A DNA stretch of 64,000 bases from Clostridiales bacterium GWF2_38_85 (GCA_001797275.1 MGOY01000008.1:14083-78082), one strand, 5' to 3'. Numbered from the stretch's first letter, positions 8,570 through 62,320 are shown. Notes: generated from the sequence alone by a model not told the origin. Translations and numbers: made by a program.

Positions 8570-8596
8570 CTATTTCTCCCTGCTGCAATTATTTCT

Positions 8597-8687
8597 GTAT
8601 AAAACTAATAAATGATTTACATCAGCTATTTGATATAAGTCATATAAATATTCTATAGAATTTACATATTTGATAAGTTAGCTTTTA
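8597..8687. repeat. degenerate copy of the palindromic element family
   Basis: GTATAAAACTAATAAATGATTTA (8597-8619) matches the T-variant arm TATAAAACTAATAAATGAATTA. A decayed partner arm AATTTACATATTTGATAAGTTAGCTTTTA lies at 8659-8687. Confidence 0.4.
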
Positions 8688-10697: not shown

Positions 10698-11699
10698 TTA
10701 TGCCATTGTTGCAAGCATCTTTTGTGTAACTTCTGTGGTCAGCAGTTGACCTTTCAAGAACCTCTCTATTTCATCTGTTATATGAGCACCAATTCTAAGC
10801 TTACCGTTATTTGCAAGGCCGGCAAGATGAGGTGTCAAAATAACGTTTGAGAGTGTGCGAAGCGGATTATCCTTTACCGGTGGTTCGGGATCGGTTACAT
10901 CAAGGCAGGCATATTTCAGATTACCGTCCTTCATAAACTGGTAGAGTGCTGCTTCGTCTATAAGTGTACCTCTTGCGGTATTTATCAGAATTGCATCCTT
11001 CTTCATGAGAGCAAGGGTATCTTTGTTGAACATATGATTTGTTGCAGGGATTGAAGGTGCATGGACTGAAACTATATCGCTGGTTTTTAAAAGTGTTTCA
11101 AGGTCAGCCTTCTTAGCACCGAGTGCAGCAGCCTTTTCCTCGCTGATATAGGGGTCATAAAGCAAAACATCAACACCAAAATTTTGTATAAGCTTTATAT
11201 AATGGCTTCCTGCCCAGCCTGCACCAACAACACCGATAGTAAGATCATAAAGCTCTCTTATCTGGTCGTAGCCGTTATCGTTCCAACCGCCTGCTGCTGT
11301 ATGCTTCGACAGGTTGAAAAAGTTTTTTGAGGCTGATATTGTAAATCCAAGTGCTGTTTCAGCAACACCGATACCGAGAGGTGCAGCCGAAGAAACAACC
11401 CTGATACCTCTTGCAAAAAGCTCGTCAGATACAATTGGCTTAACGCTGCCTGCTGCATGAGCAACCAGTTTAAGGTCAGGAGCAAGGTCGAGCAGCGGTT
11501 TATCTATACTGATGTTACCCCATGAGGTTACAGCAATATCTGCACCTCTGATAGCTGCTGCGATATCATCAACCGAACAGCTGCCATAATTGAAAACAAC
11601 ATCCCCATATTCTCTTAGTCTGTCAATAGTTTTATTTGAAAACACCTGGGGACGCATACCCTCAGACATAATTAGTGCTATTTTCTTTTTCATTATCAA
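10698..11699 (-). CDS. D-isomer-specific 2-hydroxyacid dehydrogenase family protein
   Basis: GVVGAGWAGS NAD motif, plus TARGTLIDEAAL, LDVTDPEP and TPHLAG. Confidence 0.85.
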   Translation of the reverse strand: MIMKKKIALIMSEGMRPQVFSNKTIDRLREYGDVVFNYGSCSVDDIAAAIRGADIAVTSWGNISIDKPLLDLAPDLKLVAHAAGSVKPIVSDELFARGIRVVSSAAPLGIGVAETALGFTISASKNFFNLSKHTAAGGWNDNGYDQIRELYDLTIGVVGAGWAGSHYIKLIQNFGVDVLLYDPYISEEKAAALGAKKADLETLLKTSDIVSVHAPSIPATNHMFNKDTLALMKKDAILINTARGTLIDEAALYQFMKDGNLKYACLDVTDPEPPVKDNPLRTLSNVILTPHLAGLANNGKLRIGAHITDEIERFLKGQLLTTEVTQKMLATMA

Positions 11700-22767: not shown

Positions 22768-22863
22768 ATTATTCTCCATCTCGCCGCATAAATAGCTATG
22801 AAAAAGCACATTCCACAAAGCGGATGCTGCTCATGCTTTACGAGCAGCAAGTGGCTTTTTACT

Positions 22864-22888
22864 GCGTGAAAATTCATTTTTCACGCTA
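22864..22888. promoter_or_regulatory. perfect palindrome GCGTGAAAA-N5-TTTTCACGC in the AraC/GH127 divergent region
   Basis: 9-bp arms at 22864-22872 and 22878-22886. The minus-strand reading contains TAGCGTGAAAAAT. Confidence 0.5.
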
Positions 22889-29827: not shown

Positions 29828-30741
29828 TAATTTATCACTCCTGTGTACCATTTTGGAATAGGATTTTGCATATAATCGTAGAATTCTAATACTTCCTTTG
29901 ATTGATTTAGCATTGTTTCTATTTCTTTCCGGCCGAAAGGTATTGCCCAATATACTGATGAAAGAGTGTTTGATATAATATAAAATGCAAGCAATTTAAA
30001 AAAATCTTCTGGTACTTCATTATTAAAATAACCGTTTATTCTGCCGGAAGCGAAATATTTACTGCAATGAGCGCACCAAACAATACGATTGAATTCTTCC
30101 CAAGGGTCTCCGTAATCAAATCTGTTGAAATCAATTATAGATAAATTGTTATCTGATGAAATTATCATATTACCGACATGGTAATCTCCATGATTCAACG
30201 ACTGAGGACGATTTGCAAGCAAATGTCTGTTTTTTTCGATATAATCAAAGAAATAGTTATCACCGTCTATTTTTATACCGCATTCAAGGTATTTTTTAAT
30301 TTTATTATCTGTTTTTCTATTGAATCGTGTTTCCCAGTTTTCCTGAGTTGCAGGAGCCGGAATTGAATGAATTCTCTGAAGTATTTTCCCTGCTTCAACA
30401 CCAATCTCATATTGCTCTTTCGAAGACAGCTCGTGTAATATTGTTTCAGCATCCTCGCCCTCAATCCATGTTAGAAGCATATAACAATTTAACCCTTTGT
30501 TACAATAACCAAAGTCAATCGGCTGCGACATAGGTATCTCTGTTTCGGATATTGTTTTCAATACTTTGAATTCTGATTTTTTGCGGTCATAGTTTAATGC
30601 ATCAGACAATCGCAGCAGCAAACGTCGGTTATCATTGGTTTCAATATAGTATTTCTTATCCTCAGACCAACCTTTTTCAACCAGTATGACTTTTGAGAAT
30701 GAATTGTATTGAGGTATGTCAGAAATCAAATTAATCTCCAT
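29827..30741 (-). CDS. aminoglycoside phosphotransferase (APH)/choline-kinase-fold kinase
   Basis: Brenner motif NHGDYHVGNMII and IIDFNRFDYGDPWEEF. The true start may be the TTG 15 nt downstream of the ATG. Confidence 0.8.
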   Translation of the reverse strand: MEINLISDIPQYNSFSKVILVEKGWSEDKKYYIETNDNRRLLLRLSDALNYDRKKSEFKVLKTISETEIPMSQPIDFGYCNKGLNCYMLLTWIEGEDAETILHELSSKEQYEIGVEAGKILQRIHSIPAPATQENWETRFNRKTDNKIKKYLECGIKIDGDNYFFDYIEKNRHLLANRPQSLNHGDYHVGNMIISSDNNLSIIDFNRFDYGDPWEEFNRIVWCAHCSKYFASGRINGYFNNEVPEDFFKLLAFYIISNTLSSVYWAIPFGRKEIETMLNQSKEVLEFYDYMQNPIPKWYTGVIN

Positions 30742-30921
30742 TCTACCGCACAGCGGTTATAAAAATATAGCGTGAAATGTGTTACCTCACTATATTATAT
30801 AAAACTAACAAATGAATTAGGATATTATTGATTTTGAAAAAGCCGTACAGAAAAGGCTTTTTCAAAATCGCTAAGGTAATTCATTTATTAGTTTTATATA
30901 GTTAACTTAATTTTCACGCTA
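30742..30921 (-). promoter_or_regulatory. conserved leader unit, copy A (TAGCGTGAAAA box ... GC hairpin ... start), interrupted by a nested palindrome
   Basis: Homologous to 33241-33319 at about 80% identity outside the insertion. See findings. Confidence 0.6.
30796..30900. repeat. 105-nt AT-rich nested palindromic element, full copy 1
   Basis: Outer arms TATATAAAACTAACAAATGAATTA / TAATTCATTTATTAGTTTTATATA. Inner perfect 15-bp stem GATTTTGAAAAAGCC / GGCTTTTTCAAAATC. Confidence 0.85.
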
Positions 30922-31450: not shown

Positions 31451-31966
31451 CTATTTACTGAACAAAAACTTCTCAAATGCTTTTCTTAATGGTATCAGTC
31501 TTGTGCCAACCGGCTCAGCAATCATACCGCTGTTTATCATCTCATCCAACTTACCAAGTGTTACCCATTGTGCGTCGACCGTTTCGCTCTCTTGCATAAC
31601 AAGCTCGCTTATTTCGACATCTTTTCTGATTATATATGTATCAATAAACGCTGTTTCTTCTTTCAATTCTCCAAGAAAATTCAGTTCGTTTTCTTCTGCT
31701 TTTATTCCTGTTTCTTCGAACAATTCTCTAACTGCTCCCTGTACGCTTGTTTCACCGGCAAGTATTGAGCCTGCTGAGTTTTCCCAAAGGTTTGGAAAGC
31801 ATTCCTTATTTGGATCGCGAAGTGTCAGCAGAATTTCTTGTTTGCTGTTGACCGTCCATATATCGACGACGATATGATAATCACCTCGTTTAATATGTTC
31901 GCCTCTTTTTTGCAATCTACCAAGCAGCTGTCTGTTACCGTCGTATAAATCCCAAAGCTCCATCAT
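31451..31966 (-). CDS. NUDIX hydrolase
   Basis: Nudix box GETSVQGAVRELFEETGI. Confidence 0.88.
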   Translation of the reverse strand: MMELWDLYDGNRQLLGRLQKRGEHIKRGDYHIVVDIWTVNSKQEILLTLRDPNKECFPNLWENSAGSILAGETSVQGAVRELFEETGIKAEENELNFLGELKEETAFIDTYIIRKDVEISELVMQESETVDAQWVTLGKLDEMINSGMIAEPVGTRLIPLRKAFEKFLFSK

Positions 31967-33240
31967 TTCAATCCTTCCAGTACATCAATAATTTCTGTCC
32001 AATTCTTTATATGCTGATGGTTATAATCAATAGTATCGGTGTATTTGTCACGATAATAGCATTCAATATTGCTGTCATACCACACAGGAAACATACCGGC
32101 TGAGTTTGCTCCTGCGATATCATAATAGACATTATCACCGCAAAACCAAATTTCTTCGGGTTTCAGATTTGCTTTTTTTATTGCAAGCTCAAATATCATA
32201 GGATCGGGTTTTCGCACAATATATTCACTTGATGCTATTATAAATTCGAATTTATTATTAGGAAAATTTTTGTTTATACGTTCTGCGAGAGAATCACCTG
32301 AGAATGAAATATTGCTTATAACACCGCTTCTGATTTTATTTTCATTTATGTAACTGATAACTTTATCTATATCAGACATTTTTTCACCGGGCGCAGCGTT
32401 ATCCCAGAATATCTGCTCTATCTCATCAGGCTCAAGTGGAATGTCAATTTCAAGATACTCGTAAAGCATGCGTTGAAATTTGTGATTGTGGAATTCCAAA
32501 GCATTTGTTCTTGCAATTGGCCTGAGCTTTGAAAAGAAATTTGCGGAAAACTCACTGTCTTGAATGGGTGTCAGATTGTTTTTATTATACACCGCATACT
32601 TCATTACAGCTTCGGTTCCCTTAACACCATTAAATCCGAGTTCGCACATCAGAGTATGACCATAATCAAATATAATCATCTTTGGATAAGTCATTTTAAG
32701 TTTGCTCTTTTCTTTTTCAGCTTTTCTCAATATATCTTCAAGAAAATCGTGTTTTCCTTCAATGTACAAGTCAATATCATGTCGATACTTTTCGGCAAGC
32801 TGTATTTTTAATTTGCCGTATTCATCTGCTGCTGTTTTATATTTACGCAGATAATCCCTGAATACAATATGTCTTGCAAGCTCACGGCTATTTTTCGGGC
32901 ATACATACATATGATAATCCATAAATTCATTCTTGAAGTTTCTCTTAAATGCTTCGCGTGCCTTAATTCCGAGATCACCTTCATGACTATATCCGAGTGC
33001 TTCAAGTCGATTGACGAGTTCGGGGAATATGTCATATGATTCAATTATGATATTGAAATCGATAATTGGCTTTGCTGATAATCCCTCAACCGATGTGCTG
33101 CCAACATGCTCAATCCCAATGATGATATCTGAGATGTGAGGCATTAACATATCTTTTATCTTCTCAAATTCGTTTTTCCATTCGGGGTTATAGGGTTCGA
33201 CAATAATTGTGCGGTTTGGATTATACATATTAATTTCCAT
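31963..33240 (-). CDS. GrpB (UPF0157, nucleotidyltransferase-fold) - HAD-like hydrolase fusion protein
   Basis: N-terminal half: IIVEPYNPEW...IEHVGSTSVEGLSAKPIIDFNI...HMYVC (GrpB). C-terminal half: IIFDYGHTL...SNISFSG...FCGDNVYYDIAGANSAG (HAD motifs I-IV, with the second Asp of motif I replaced). Confidence 0.75.
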   Translation of the reverse strand: MEINMYNPNRTIIVEPYNPEWKNEFEKIKDMLMPHISDIIIGIEHVGSTSVEGLSAKPIIDFNIIIESYDIFPELVNRLEALGYSHEGDLGIKAREAFKRNFKNEFMDYHMYVCPKNSRELARHIVFRDYLRKYKTAADEYGKLKIQLAEKYRHDIDLYIEGKHDFLEDILRKAEKEKSKLKMTYPKMIIFDYGHTLMCELGFNGVKGTEAVMKYAVYNKNNLTPIQDSEFSANFFSKLRPIARTNALEFHNHKFQRMLYEYLEIDIPLEPDEIEQIFWDNAAPGEKMSDIDKVISYINENKIRSGVISNISFSGDSLAERINKNFPNNKFEFIIASSEYIVRKPDPMIFELAIKKANLKPEEIWFCGDNVYYDIAGANSAGMFPVWYDSNIECYYRDKYTDTIDYNHQHIKNWTEIIDVLEGLK

Positions 33241-33319
33241 TCTGCCGCGTAGCGGCTGTATAAAATATAAGGTGAAATAAATTACCTTCCATCATTTGTT
33301 AAGTTAATTTTCACGCTAT
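33241..33319 (-). promoter_or_regulatory. conserved leader unit, copy B (compact)
   Basis: Minus-strand sequence TAGCGTGAAAATTAACTTAAC...GGTAATTTATTTCACCTTATATTTTATACAGCCGCTACGCGGCAGAATGGAAATTAAT. Confidence 0.6.
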
Positions 33320-34069
33320 CTGTCTCCTTTTATAAATGTCTCCGCTTTCGACAGAATATCCTTATATTTTTCATGTATAAGCAGGTTGCAAGTTGTTTCT
33401 CTATCTGTCCAGATATATTCTTTGATTTCCGAATTTGGTGTTATAACTGTGTTTGACACCTCAGACAAAAATAAAATTACCTGTTTTTGGCGAAGCGGAT
33501 TAATATTGTAAACTATTTCTTCACGAAAATCAAGTACTAATTTTACATTTATTCCTATTTCTTCTCGAACTTCGCGAATTGCTGTATCAGATTCAATTTC
33601 AAAAACTTCCGAATGTCCTTTAGGAAAGCTCCAGGTTCTTGATTTTTGTTGAAACAATAATAAATATTCGATATTGAAATTTGTTTTGCTTTTTTCGATA
33701 AATAATTACCCCACAGGATTTCTTATAAAGAGCATGTATTGTTGTTTTGAAATATAACTCTTGAAAATTAACCGCTTCGGCAACCTCTGCTTGATTTAGC
33801 TTCACATTTTCGGGAGCGACAACCCATTTATCTTCAACATCATCTTCTCTTTTAATTACAGCAATAATTCTTCCTGTGAACTGCTTGACAGGATGGTCAA
33901 CACCGAGAAGGTACGCATCCTGTTCCTCGCCATCGGGTGCAATAACACCTTCTATGTAGCCGTAATTCACTGGATAAATGATATTTTTATATTCAGGATG
34001 TGTGCTTCCAAGCGGTCTGTCTACTGTAACTATTTGATTTAATATATCATCATACATATCTATGACCAT
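33316..34069 (-). pseudogene. inorganic-pyrophosphatase-like domain - NUDIX fusion gene, interrupted by a 1-nt frameshift
   Basis: ORF 33620-34108 (VDRPLGSTHPE...YPVNYGYI...DGEEQDAYLLG...EDKWVV...SCGVIIYRKKQNKFQY) and ORF 33316-33657 (WSFPKGHSE...AIREVREEIGI). They join into one NUDIX domain if one base near 33668-33675 is removed (..KFQ-EYLLLFQQKSRTWSFPKGH). Confidence 0.7.
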
Positions 34070-34089
34070 TCCTTTTTTTATATATAAAC

Positions 34090-34118
34090 ATAATAACATA
34101 GTTTTCATGTTTATTCAA
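34090..34118 (-). promoter_or_regulatory. sigma-A-type promoter at the head of the phosphoesterase island
   Basis: Minus-strand TTGAAT (34118-34113), 17 nt, then TG-n-TATTAT (34095-34090). Confidence 0.55.
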
Positions 34119-51555: not shown

Positions 51556-51666
51556 TTTATATTAAACTAACAAATGAATTGTGATTTTATTAATTTGAAA
51601 AGACCAAAGAGTATAGACACTTTTCAAATTGCTTAGGTAATTCATTTATTAGTTTAATATAGTTAA
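51556..51666. repeat. AT-rich nested palindromic element, full copy 2
   Basis: ATATTAAACTAACAAATGAATT...AATTTGAAAAG(N17)CTTTTCAAATT...AATTCATTTATTAGTTTAATAT, followed by AGTTAA as in copy 1. Confidence 0.85.
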
Positions 51667-60848: not shown

Positions 60849-61609
60849 TGTTTGACTCTCATGCACACTACGACGATAAAAAATTTGACACCGACAGACA
60901 CGAGCTGCTGTCGGTGCTTCAATCAAATATCAAAATAGAAGGAATTATAAATGCTGCTACTGATATTAAAAGCTGCGAACAAATAATAGCACTTTCCGAG
61001 CAGTACAGCAAGCTTTATTCTGCGATCGGAGTTCACCCGCATGAAACAAGTGAAGTCAAAGAAAGCTATATTGGCAAGCTGAAAGCTTTTGCAAAGAATG
61101 AAAAGGTTGTTGCAATCGGTGAAATCGGATTGGATTTTCATTATGACTTTTCACCGAGAGACATTCAACGACGTTTATTTGAGGATCAGATGATTCTTGC
61201 TGAAGAATTAAAACTGCCTGTAATAATTCATGATCGTGAAGCTCATGGTGAATGTGTTGCTATGACTGAGAAATTTCCCAATGTTATCGGAGTTTTTCAC
61301 AGCTTTTCGGGAAGCACAGAGACAGCGAAAATACTGTTGAACAAAGGATGGTATATATCCTTCAACGGGATTATAACCTTCAAGAATGCAACAAATTTGC
61401 GTTCTGTTGTACCAAATATACCTGATGATAGGCTACTTGTCGAAACAGACTGCCCGTATCTTGCACCTGTTCCCCATCGTGGCGAAAGAAATAACAGCAG
61501 ACATATGAAGCATACAATCATTGAGCTTGCTCAGCTACGTGGACAAAGCTTTGAATATATTGAAAAAATAACAACCGAAAATGCAAAAAGACTTTTCGGA
61601 ATAGAATAA
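60848..61609 (+). CDS. tatD: TatD family hydrolase
   Basis: Motifs FDSHAHY, EIGLDFHY, HSFSG and ETDCPYL. Confidence 0.92.
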   Translation: MFDSHAHYDDKKFDTDRHELLSVLQSNIKIEGIINAATDIKSCEQIIALSEQYSKLYSAIGVHPHETSEVKESYIGKLKAFAKNEKVVAIGEIGLDFHYDFSPRDIQRRLFEDQMILAEELKLPVIIHDREAHGECVAMTEKFPNVIGVFHSFSGSTETAKILLNKGWYISFNGIITFKNATNLRSVVPNIPDDRLLVETDCPYLAPVPHRGERNNSRHMKHTIIELAQLRGQSFEYIEKITTENAKRLFGIE

Positions 61610-61717
61610 GAAACAAGGAATTTAGCGTGAAAAATATACAATGCAAAGATACAGTGGCGCGTATCTCCATGTATTATTCATGACTATTTTTGCCCGAAAC
61701 AGGGCATGGAGATTATA
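61610..61717 (+). promoter_or_regulatory. structured leader of the radical-SAM gene with the TAGCGTGAAAAAT box and an anti-SD/SD pairing option
   Basis: TAGCGTGAAAAAT at 61623-61635. ATCTCCATG (61663-61671) is exactly complementary to CATGGAGAT (61705-61713), which contains the SD. Confidence 0.5.
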
Positions 61718-62320
61718 ATGCTGACTATAACTTACATTGTCGACAACTCGCTTTATGTCAACATAACAAACCGCTGTACAAACAACTGCGATTTCTGTAT
61801 CCGAAATAATGGGGATGGAGCATATGGCAGCAACAGCTTATGGCTCGAACGTGAACCGACAGTTGATGAAATTTACAATGATATCATGAAATATCAACTC
61901 GATAAATACGATGAACTGATATTCTGCGGATACGGTGAACCGACAATGCGTGTTTACGACCTCGTTGAAGTCGCAAAAAAAGTTAAGGCGGCATCGAATA
62001 TTCATATACGGATTAATACGAACGGACATGCCAATCTTGTTCACCGCACAGATGTAACTCCCCTTTTCGAAGGAATAATTGATACTGTATCTATCAGTCT
62101 TAACAATGCCAATAAAGAGGATTACAACAGTATCTGCCACCCAGCATATAAAAATGCATATGAAAAGATGATAGAATTTACTGCTCTTTGTTCAAAACAT
62201 GTAGAAAATGTCGTTATGTCTGTGGTCCACGGTACGATCCCAGATGAGAATCTTGAGAAGTGCAGAATTATCGCAGAAAATGCAGGTGCAAAGCTCAGAA
62301 TCCGTGAATACATCTCATAA
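61718..62320 (+). CDS. TatD-associated radical SAM protein (TIGR04038-like)
   Basis: CTNNCDFC (CxxxCxxC) near the N-terminus. Lies immediately downstream of tatD. An alternative start lies at 61706. Confidence 0.8.
   Translation: MLTITYIVDNSLYVNITNRCTNNCDFCIRNNGDGAYGSNSLWLEREPTVDEIYNDIMKYQLDKYDELIFCGYGEPTMRVYDLVEVAKKVKAASNIHIRINTNGHANLVHRTDVTPLFEGIIDTVSISLNNANKEDYNSICHPAYKNAYEKMIEFTALCSKHVENVVMSVVHGTIPDENLEKCRIIAENAGAKLRIREYIS

Follow-up and report, generated by a model that had tools for sequence, protein, structure and literature searches.

Copy B, a short unit directly 5' of a GrpB-HAD gene in the uncultivated Clostridiales bacterium GWF2_38_85, probably belongs, as an intact copy, to a genome-specific family of dispersed leader repeats that sit in the spacer between an SD and its start codon and bring a replacement SD with them. 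The two-hairpin repeat has at least seven copies in this one genome, spread over four contigs: four copies (A, B, C, and D) in the window, which is the whole 64,000-nt stretch analyzed, and three on other contigs (L134, L136, and L140). A unit copy is about 91-121 nt in size, or 192 nt with the nested MITE of copy A, and unit-to-unit identity across the family is 69-91%.

Proteins named Clostridiales bacterium GWF2_38_85 are matched at 100% identity by both the MetRS encoded in the window and the Fhs of L134, showing that all copies come from one genome; L134, L136, and L140 are contigs of one JGI metagenome sample, Ga0209417. The stretch is also present as contig DOAL01000030.1 (GCA_003504315.1), and its public assemblies are all 100% identical to the window, so that there is no within-species presence/absence polymorphism to compare. 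A covariance model (R1) built from five copies recovered copy B at 33226-33334 with 113.9 bits and copy C at 61607-61720 (+) marginally. This model under-scores diverged copies (18.3 bits and an E of 0.25 for C, while D was missed), and the site of copy D, near 22888 (-), turned up in a box search allowing mismatches. R1 found no other significant copy, and pattern searches no additional copies, in the window, its extensions (L152/L154), L134/L136/L140, and the relatives' loci; about 15 kb past both window ends contained no extra unit copy.

A scan of JGI metagenomes with the 19-mer pattern GCGTGAAAATTAANTTAAC returned 15 loci, three of which are full-length units, all from sample Ga0209417, and the other 12 have no additional unit features. 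In the GTDB representative genomes, which do not include the GWF2_38_85 genome, the same pattern (18 fixed bases) had nine matches, about the rough chance expectation. The match in a Ruminococcus MAG was rejected as a unit since it sits within atpB (FGVKINLTE), and the remaining ones fall in unrelated phyla. Viral contigs scanned with the pattern gave 0 matches, plasmid blastn with the L140 unit as query gave no match, and Rfam 15 gave no match over the whole window at gathering thresholds; permissive Rfam scans of units B and L140 returned chance-level matches only (E >=1.3). The family described here is known from seven copies in a single genome.

The order of parts is the same in all seven units: an SD-like motif (SD1), the box TAGCGTGAAAA, a long hairpin (P1), a linker, a second hairpin (P2), a second SD (SD2), and the real start codon of the gene. 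All are sense-oriented and lie between SD1 and the start codon, in a 5' UTR or an intercistronic spacer. An SD-like 4-mer is found within 12 nt 5' of the box in 7/7 copies, against a background of 0.049 per 12-mer (p ~6e-10); the SD1 motif lies 0-5 nt before the box, and the GTG of the box follows SD1 by 4-9 nt. No 4-5-mer is conserved 5' of the box. The box itself, an 11-mer that is exact in every copy, holds TAG, a GTG start, and an overlapping TGA (TAG-C-GTG-A). Its GTG opens a mini-ORF of 6-18 codons, the peptides of which share just MK(I/N).

The box is also the 5' arm of the P1 base, pairing with the downstream TTTCACGCTA, and the P1 apex is variable: the loop measures 5 nt in D and ~15 nt in most copies, and the arms of A are 132 nt apart with the MITE counted in. 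An arm spacing of 5 to 132 nt led us to reject P1 as a double-stranded DNA operator with Rex- or CRP-like half-sites. That the 11-nt box is fixed despite a drifted pairing partner suggests recognition by sequence or a role in translation. A short linker, often TATATT(G/T)T, joins P1 to P2, which is a 5-bp GC-rich hairpin followed by (AGA)ATGGAG; AGAATGGAG carries the new SD 7 nt 5' of the real start. The distance from the GGA of SD2 to the real start is 7 nt in six of the seven copies and 9 nt in L134.

The gene itself starts at a later ATG or TTG and not at the ATG of ATGGAG. From the downstream codon, Fhs (MKSDVQIA...) and the radical SAM protein (MLTITY...) match the N-termini of their orthologs, and the rubrerythrin of L140 begins with MKDLKGTKTEKNL..., which we take to be typical for its family; in L134, the ATG of ATGGAG is out of frame. 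An in-frame ATGGAG in the unit causes gene starts to be annotated four codons too early. No sigma-70-like promoter was found within units A or B, and promoter-like sites are present 5' of L134 and D; the unit lies 3' of promoters or within operons.

The genes around copy B are on the minus strand, and the unit (33229-33318, minus) extends from the 5' box up to the base that precedes the GrpB-HAD start, complete and with no nested insertion, in the order AAAAGGAGACAGA-TAGCGTGAAAATTAACTTAAC-AAATGATGGAAGGTAATTTATTTCACCTTATATTTTATACA-GCCGC-TAC-GCGGC-AGAATGGAAATTAAT-ATG. SD1, here AGGAG (33324-33328, minus), is 9 nt 5' of the box GTG, and we infer that it is the native SD of the downstream gene. 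The invariant box TAGCGTGAAAA (33308-33318) opens P1, a long imperfect hairpin (TAGCGTGAAAATTAACTT ... AAGGTAATTTATTTCACCTTA; 33268-33318), and the mini-ORF, GTG...TAA (33282-33314), encodes MKINLTNDGR*; P2 is at 33244-33256 and the SD2 region, ATGGAAATTAAT, is at 33229-33240, with its GGA 7 nt 5' of the real start (all minus strand). The sequence of the start-proximal hairpin given in the original prediction, GCCGC-TAC-GCGGC (33256-33244, minus), is correct. The unit had been taken to end at the ATG of ATGGAA (33241), but ATGGAA (33240-33235) is the SD region of unit B, and the real end lies 12 nt further, at 33229, next to the ATG (33228-33226) with which the GrpB-HAD gene really begins; other assemblies call a 421-aa product for this gene. 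No orthologous site for unit B was found, the GrpB-HAD fusion being unique to GWF2_38_85 among the matches listed.

Copy A (30730-30921, minus) lies between the gene of a 171-aa P-loop protein and an APH gene (start TTG 30729-30727). Its 5' box TAGCGTGAAAATTAA is identical to that of copy B, and a 21-mer from it has two matches in the window against 0 expected (100 shuffles). The blocks are ordered as in copy B and broken by a 105-nt perfect-stem palindrome; without the palindrome, the two copies align over ~95 nt with 77% identity, which bears out the earlier view of A and B as two copies of one leader unit directly 5' of start codons. The hairpin ACCGC-TGT-GCGGT ascribed to copy A is likewise in place, as P2 at 30745-30757 (minus; read 30757-30745). 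The P1 3' arm, ATTTCACGCTA, is at 30768-30778 (minus), and the mini-ORF before the MITE encodes MKIKLTNIVR*.

The palindrome of copy A (30796-30900; fold -42.6 kcal/mol, z -12.4) occupies the P1 apical loop, probably flanked by a TA duplication, and is missing from copy B, as had been noted, and from the other five copies. The element occurs elsewhere, as a second full copy at 51557-51666 with no unit associated, as a solo arm (half copy) at 8595-8633, and as an 85% identical element on L140 (12160-12270), 3' of the rubrerythrin terminator. It is a MITE-like repeat of its own, inserted in the P1 loop. It had been proposed that about 11 nt of copy B resemble the inner end of the palindrome arm and that copy B is either the footprint of the excised palindrome or a seed for its growth. 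The resemblance exists, since B carries the 10-mer TAACAAATGA also found in the arm, but it is a lone match of 10-11 nt, and the segment of B aligns with the flank of the palindrome, not with its interior. When the palindrome is cut from A with one TA kept, the remainder has the length of B from GTG to TATATTTT (53 nt) and aligns to it without gaps at 41/53 identities, as against only 31/51 when all 105 nt are cut. This gapless alignment, together with the absence of the palindrome from the five other units, identifies copy B as an unoccupied site. With the palindrome forming an independent family that has copies away from units, a footprint or seed origin of copy B is very improbable.

As side observations, this family of ~105-nt near-perfect palindromes contains a terminator-like hairpin in its interior, and its ends are probably flanked by TA; two of its copies have the left flank TTAAC in common. 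Logan short-read contigs stop inside unit A with its MITE (L012 end, window ~30875) and inside unit C (L153 start, ~61690), breaks that are consistent with sequences repeated in the genome.

Copy C (61623-61717, +) and copy D (22768-22888, minus) are diverged. Copy C separates tatD (stop 61607-61609) from a radical SAM gene (ATG 61718), with SD1 AAGGAA at 61615-61620 (+) and P2 TGCCC-GAAACA-GGGCA at 61691-61706 (+). Copy D is in the 5' UTR of an AraC-type regulator gene (ATG 22767-22765), 3' of a promoter-like TTGCAA-17-TATATT at 22940-22912. Its P1 is compact (GCGTGAAAA-ATGAA-TTTTCACGC), and its P2 arms, GCTGC/GCGGC, enclose ~57 extra nt. These extra nucleotides (window 22788-22843) are structured, and the compact P1 of D has, on the opposite strand, a terminator-like score and faces a divergent GH127 gene.

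The off-window copies precede fhs (L134), a rubrerythrin gene (L140), and a short ORF (L136). L134 has the same promoter as fhs in the relatives, followed by 22 nt, SD1 GGGAGGG, the unit, and ATG. In this copy only, a promoter-like TTGAGA-18-TATATT (L134 1609-1638) has its -10 in the TATATT linker, and the unit may contain a weak internal promoter. On L140, a Fur/PerR-like regulator gene (11007-11417) is directly 5' of the unit that precedes rubrerythrin, and the unit thus lies between cistrons of a probable perR-rbr operon. The L136 copy has a 68-nt insert between P1 and P2 (777-844, minus), unique in the available sequence and predicted to fold into a small three-way structure in which GAAATTCTT...AAGAATTTC enclose two hairpins. 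The ORF after this unit (~665-740) has 24 codons and is antisense to a 61-codon membrane-protein-like ORF that reads into the 3' end of the unit; the L136 copy may be one without a real gene to serve.

The overlap of the box with the stop codon of the upstream gene, from which a cassette-like layout had been proposed, holds in part. The NUDIX fragment terminates at the TAG of the box in copy B (33318-33316), and the P-loop protein gene at the TGA of the box in copy A (30916-30914). In C, D, L134, L136, and L140, however, the box overlaps no stop, and the sequence 5' of it is promoter or non-coding, so the box does not mark the end of an upstream gene as a rule. The overlap in A and B is due to the location of the unit inside packed operon junctions, where an upstream ORF passes the next SD and meets the TAG or TGA of the unit. 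The unit in this way accounts for odd C-terminal extensions of upstream genes, as it does for contig breaks in short-read assemblies.

A related idea is that the unit is an attC-like recombination site and that the GrpB-HAD/NUDIX/P-loop segment between B and A is an inserted cassette. B and A do form direct repeats around a 2.4-kb, three-gene segment, both overlap the upstream stop, and P1 resembles attC sites in that its base is conserved and its apex varies. Nevertheless, the five other copies are single, none being in an array (0/5), with L134, L136, and D behind promoters or promoter-like sequence, and the unit runs ~45 nt beyond P1 and is fixed to the downstream start rather than to the upstream gene end. 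The P1 base has no RYYYAAC/GTTRRRY pair, and its 3' arm no GTTRRRY; no integrase is among the called, Pfam-annotated genes of the 21-kb neighborhood; and A and B are just 77% identical. We regard this reading as largely refuted, with very little probability left to it.

RNAalifold recovered P1 and P2 with 94% of cells paired, vs 29-43% with the partners slid, while the fold z-scores of the units are modest (-1.7 to -3.4). For P2, 96% of cells are paired in the five-copy alignment. P2 has five standard pairs in B (GCCGC/GCGGC), and in A (ACCGC/GCGGT) the closing pair is altered on both sides. L134 (GUCGC/GCGGC) and L140 (GCUGC/GCGGC) each have one C-G changed to U.G, D has GCUGC/GCGGC with its ~57 extra nt between the arms, and L136 (ACCGC/GCGGC) has an A.C mismatch at the closing pair. 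Copy C has another stem sequence, UGCCC/GGGCA, at the equal position. The compensatory A-T to G-C change of the closing pair between A and B, put forward in the original prediction, is real and keeps the pairing, but it is a single event and not significant. Alignment of further copies, the check that had been proposed, found P2 in 7/7, but as many as 182 of 500 shuffles reach the covariation score (P1 and P2, five-copy alignment), so that the lone compensatory change carries no significance. What does stand is the start-proximal hairpin as a maintained feature, present at a fixed position in every copy despite sequence change, and this persistence is better evidence than covariation. The C-to-U changes in P2 retain pairing on the sense strand only, which fits an RNA hairpin or a top-strand hairpin.

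The position of the unit relative to the native signals can be seen in relatives with empty sites. In relatives with 75-76% identical Fhs, fhs is preceded by TTGATT-17-TATAAT, 20 nt, GAAAGGA, ~10 nt, and ATG, with no unit. In the relative L151 (MetRS 71% identical), the spacer between tatD and the radical SAM gene is TAG-AAAGGACATCACGATAT-TTG, 17 nt with no unit; the corresponding spacer in the window is TAA-GAAACAAGGAATT-[unit C]-ATG, 108 nt, and the two starts align. The unit is thus absent from two orthologous loci in the nearest relatives, fhs and tatD-radical SAM, where SD and start are kept, and these two empty sites place the unit between the native SD and the start codon. SD1 is thus most readily understood as the SD that the gene had originally, with SD2 as the substitute brought in by the unit. 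These relatives are distant (71-76% protein identity), and exact insertion boundaries are not readable from them; the relatives may conceivably have lost the unit.

The L140 and L136 units share 50/50 nt, P1 loop included, and this near-identity in front of unrelated downstream genes points to recent copying and not to a conserved regulon. We propose that the unit would be transcribed within the mRNA, as a 5' UTR or intercistronic spacer, and that translation of the gene would start from SD2, leaving SD1 to serve only the 6-18-codon mini-ORF that starts inside P1. An insertion or copy-paste process of some form would have spread the unit, which would be tolerated because it replaces the SD that it displaces. 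The hairpins may act in the RNA, in stability or in RBS insulation, or may alternatively be single-strand recognition sites for whatever spreads the unit.

It is possible, although we think it rather unlikely, that the unit is primarily a cis-regulatory RNA leader, in which P1 and the box would be bound in trans by a protein or RNA or the SD1-GTG mini-ORF would act as a ribosome-sensing attenuator, the copies forming a regulon. The exact box in 7/7 copies, including the diverged C and D, with a varying pairing partner, is in accord with such a role, as are the sense orientation of all copies in 5' UTRs or intercistronic spacers and the presence of SD1 and GTG in all seven. In addition, the P2 stem in A' and B can extend onto the SD2 region, and a 3-nt length difference in L134 leaves the mini-ORF in frame. 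Against a regulon, the unit is missing at the two orthologous loci in the nearest relatives, and the genes it precedes are unrelated (fhs, rubrerythrin, APH-like kinase, GrpB-HAD, AraC regulator, radical SAM, and the 24-codon ORF). That L140 and L136 have the same unpaired loop indicates recent copying rather than selection, and the unit can accommodate large nested insertions, as in the P1 loop of A, the linker of L136 (68 nt), and the P2 loop of D. Past MK(I/N), the mini-ORF peptides show no conservation, and those of A, L136, and L140 are shortened; the predicted P2 extension pairing with the SD2 region is absent from L134 and L140; and no Rfam family matches. A regulatory role would not exclude a repeat origin, however, the Neisseria REP2/CREN element offering an analogy that is both.

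No terminal inverted repeats of the unit and no convincing target duplication were found, nor was a parent element in ~130 kb of the genome. A classical MITE was rejected, since there are no terminal inverted repeats and the inverted repeat P1 fills the 5' half only. In no copy does SD1 match SD2, and the two were rejected as a duplicated target; a flanking TA...TA around the unit is possible and uninformative in AT-rich DNA. A REP/RAYT or IS200/IS605-derived element was likewise rejected, with P1 unlike P2, all seven copies sense-oriented 5' of a start, and no conserved 4-5-mer 5' of the box. A more specific proposal, conceivable but rather unlikely, is a non-autonomous mobile element that homes to SD-start spacers, with the stop/restart box TAG-C-GTG-A and a replacement SD at the right spacing offsetting the damage it does. 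As part of this same tentative proposal, the element would be spread by a hairpin-recognizing or RNA-guided enzyme, and its layout resembles bicistronic expression design. If positional targeting is real, the insertion specificity would be a new one, and the unit would offer a natural model for portable modules of translation initiation.

The kind of element described so far that comes closest is Neisseria REP2/CREN, and then Borrelia IR-A/B, a likeness in described layout. Neisseria REP2 (CREN, contact regulatory element of Neisseria) is a dispersed intergenic repeat of ~100-150 nt that has no terminal inverted repeats and contains two internal inverted repeats and two predicted RNA stem-loops; it carries an RBS, 5' UTR sequence, and a promoter, and is fused at the initiation codon of unrelated ORFs (PMC3184786). 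The present family (91-121 nt, at least seven copies) is similarly a multi-copy dispersed intergenic repeat, with no terminal inverted repeats (the right end of the unit has no left-end complement) and two internal stem-loops, P1 and P2, and it has its own RBS abutting the start codon of unrelated ORFs in 7/7 units. Unlike REP2/CREN, units A and B have no sigma-70-like promoter, the unit is located 3' of a second, apparently native SD that leads into a mini-ORF, and its host is an uncultivated member of the Clostridiales rather than a proteobacterium. Homology to Neisseria REP2 is not expected because the host phyla are unrelated. The Borrelia plasmid repeats IR-A/IR-B are directly 5' of genes, with an RBS and start codon and two internal inverted repeats near the 5' end, and are plasmid-borne, promoter-carrying, and of low copy number (PMC3184786). 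Like REP2, they are dispersed, lack terminal inverted repeats, and are joined to unrelated ORFs. No relation to a native SD is described for them, unlike the present unit. The origin and mode of proliferation of both REP2/CREN and Borrelia IR are open (PMC3184786).

Very few small dispersed repeats are known to join an RBS to unrelated genes; Neisseria REP2/CREN and Borrelia IR are the examples. The present family adds a Firmicutes-type example with clear anatomy, two orthologous empty sites that place the unit between the native SD and the start, and nested secondary insertions that show which parts tolerate disruption. ERIC/IRU of enterobacteria and the Correia elements of Neisseria are small imperfect palindromes in transcribed intergenic regions that are co-transcribed, with extra internal insertions in some copies and a proposed effect on mRNA processing and stability. 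They are palindromic from end to end and found in either orientation, and Correia elements duplicate TA; the present unit differs in being fixed to start codons and supplying an SD at a set distance. The erm/cat leader-peptide attenuators and the synthetic bicistronic design have the order SD1, short ORF, hairpin(s), SD2, and gene, which is also the order of our unit (SD1, mini-ORF, hairpins, SD2, gene). In contrast to these, the mini-ORF of the unit stops 40-70 nt from SD2, with no overlap or coupling, neither the peptide nor the sequestration of SD2 is conserved, and the downstream genes are not a resistance set.

Two minor observations concern the genes on either side of copy B. The GrpB-HAD fusion (31963-33228, minus) has no second full-length homolog among the matches listed, the other listed matches covering the HAD half only, with <=60% identity. 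Upstream of the unit (window 33316-34108, minus), a pyrophosphatase-like ORF (33620-34108) and the NUDIX ORF (33316-33657) overlap in different frames, which looks like a frameshifted fused gene; the same sequence is present in independent assemblies, and it is therefore not a single-assembly error.
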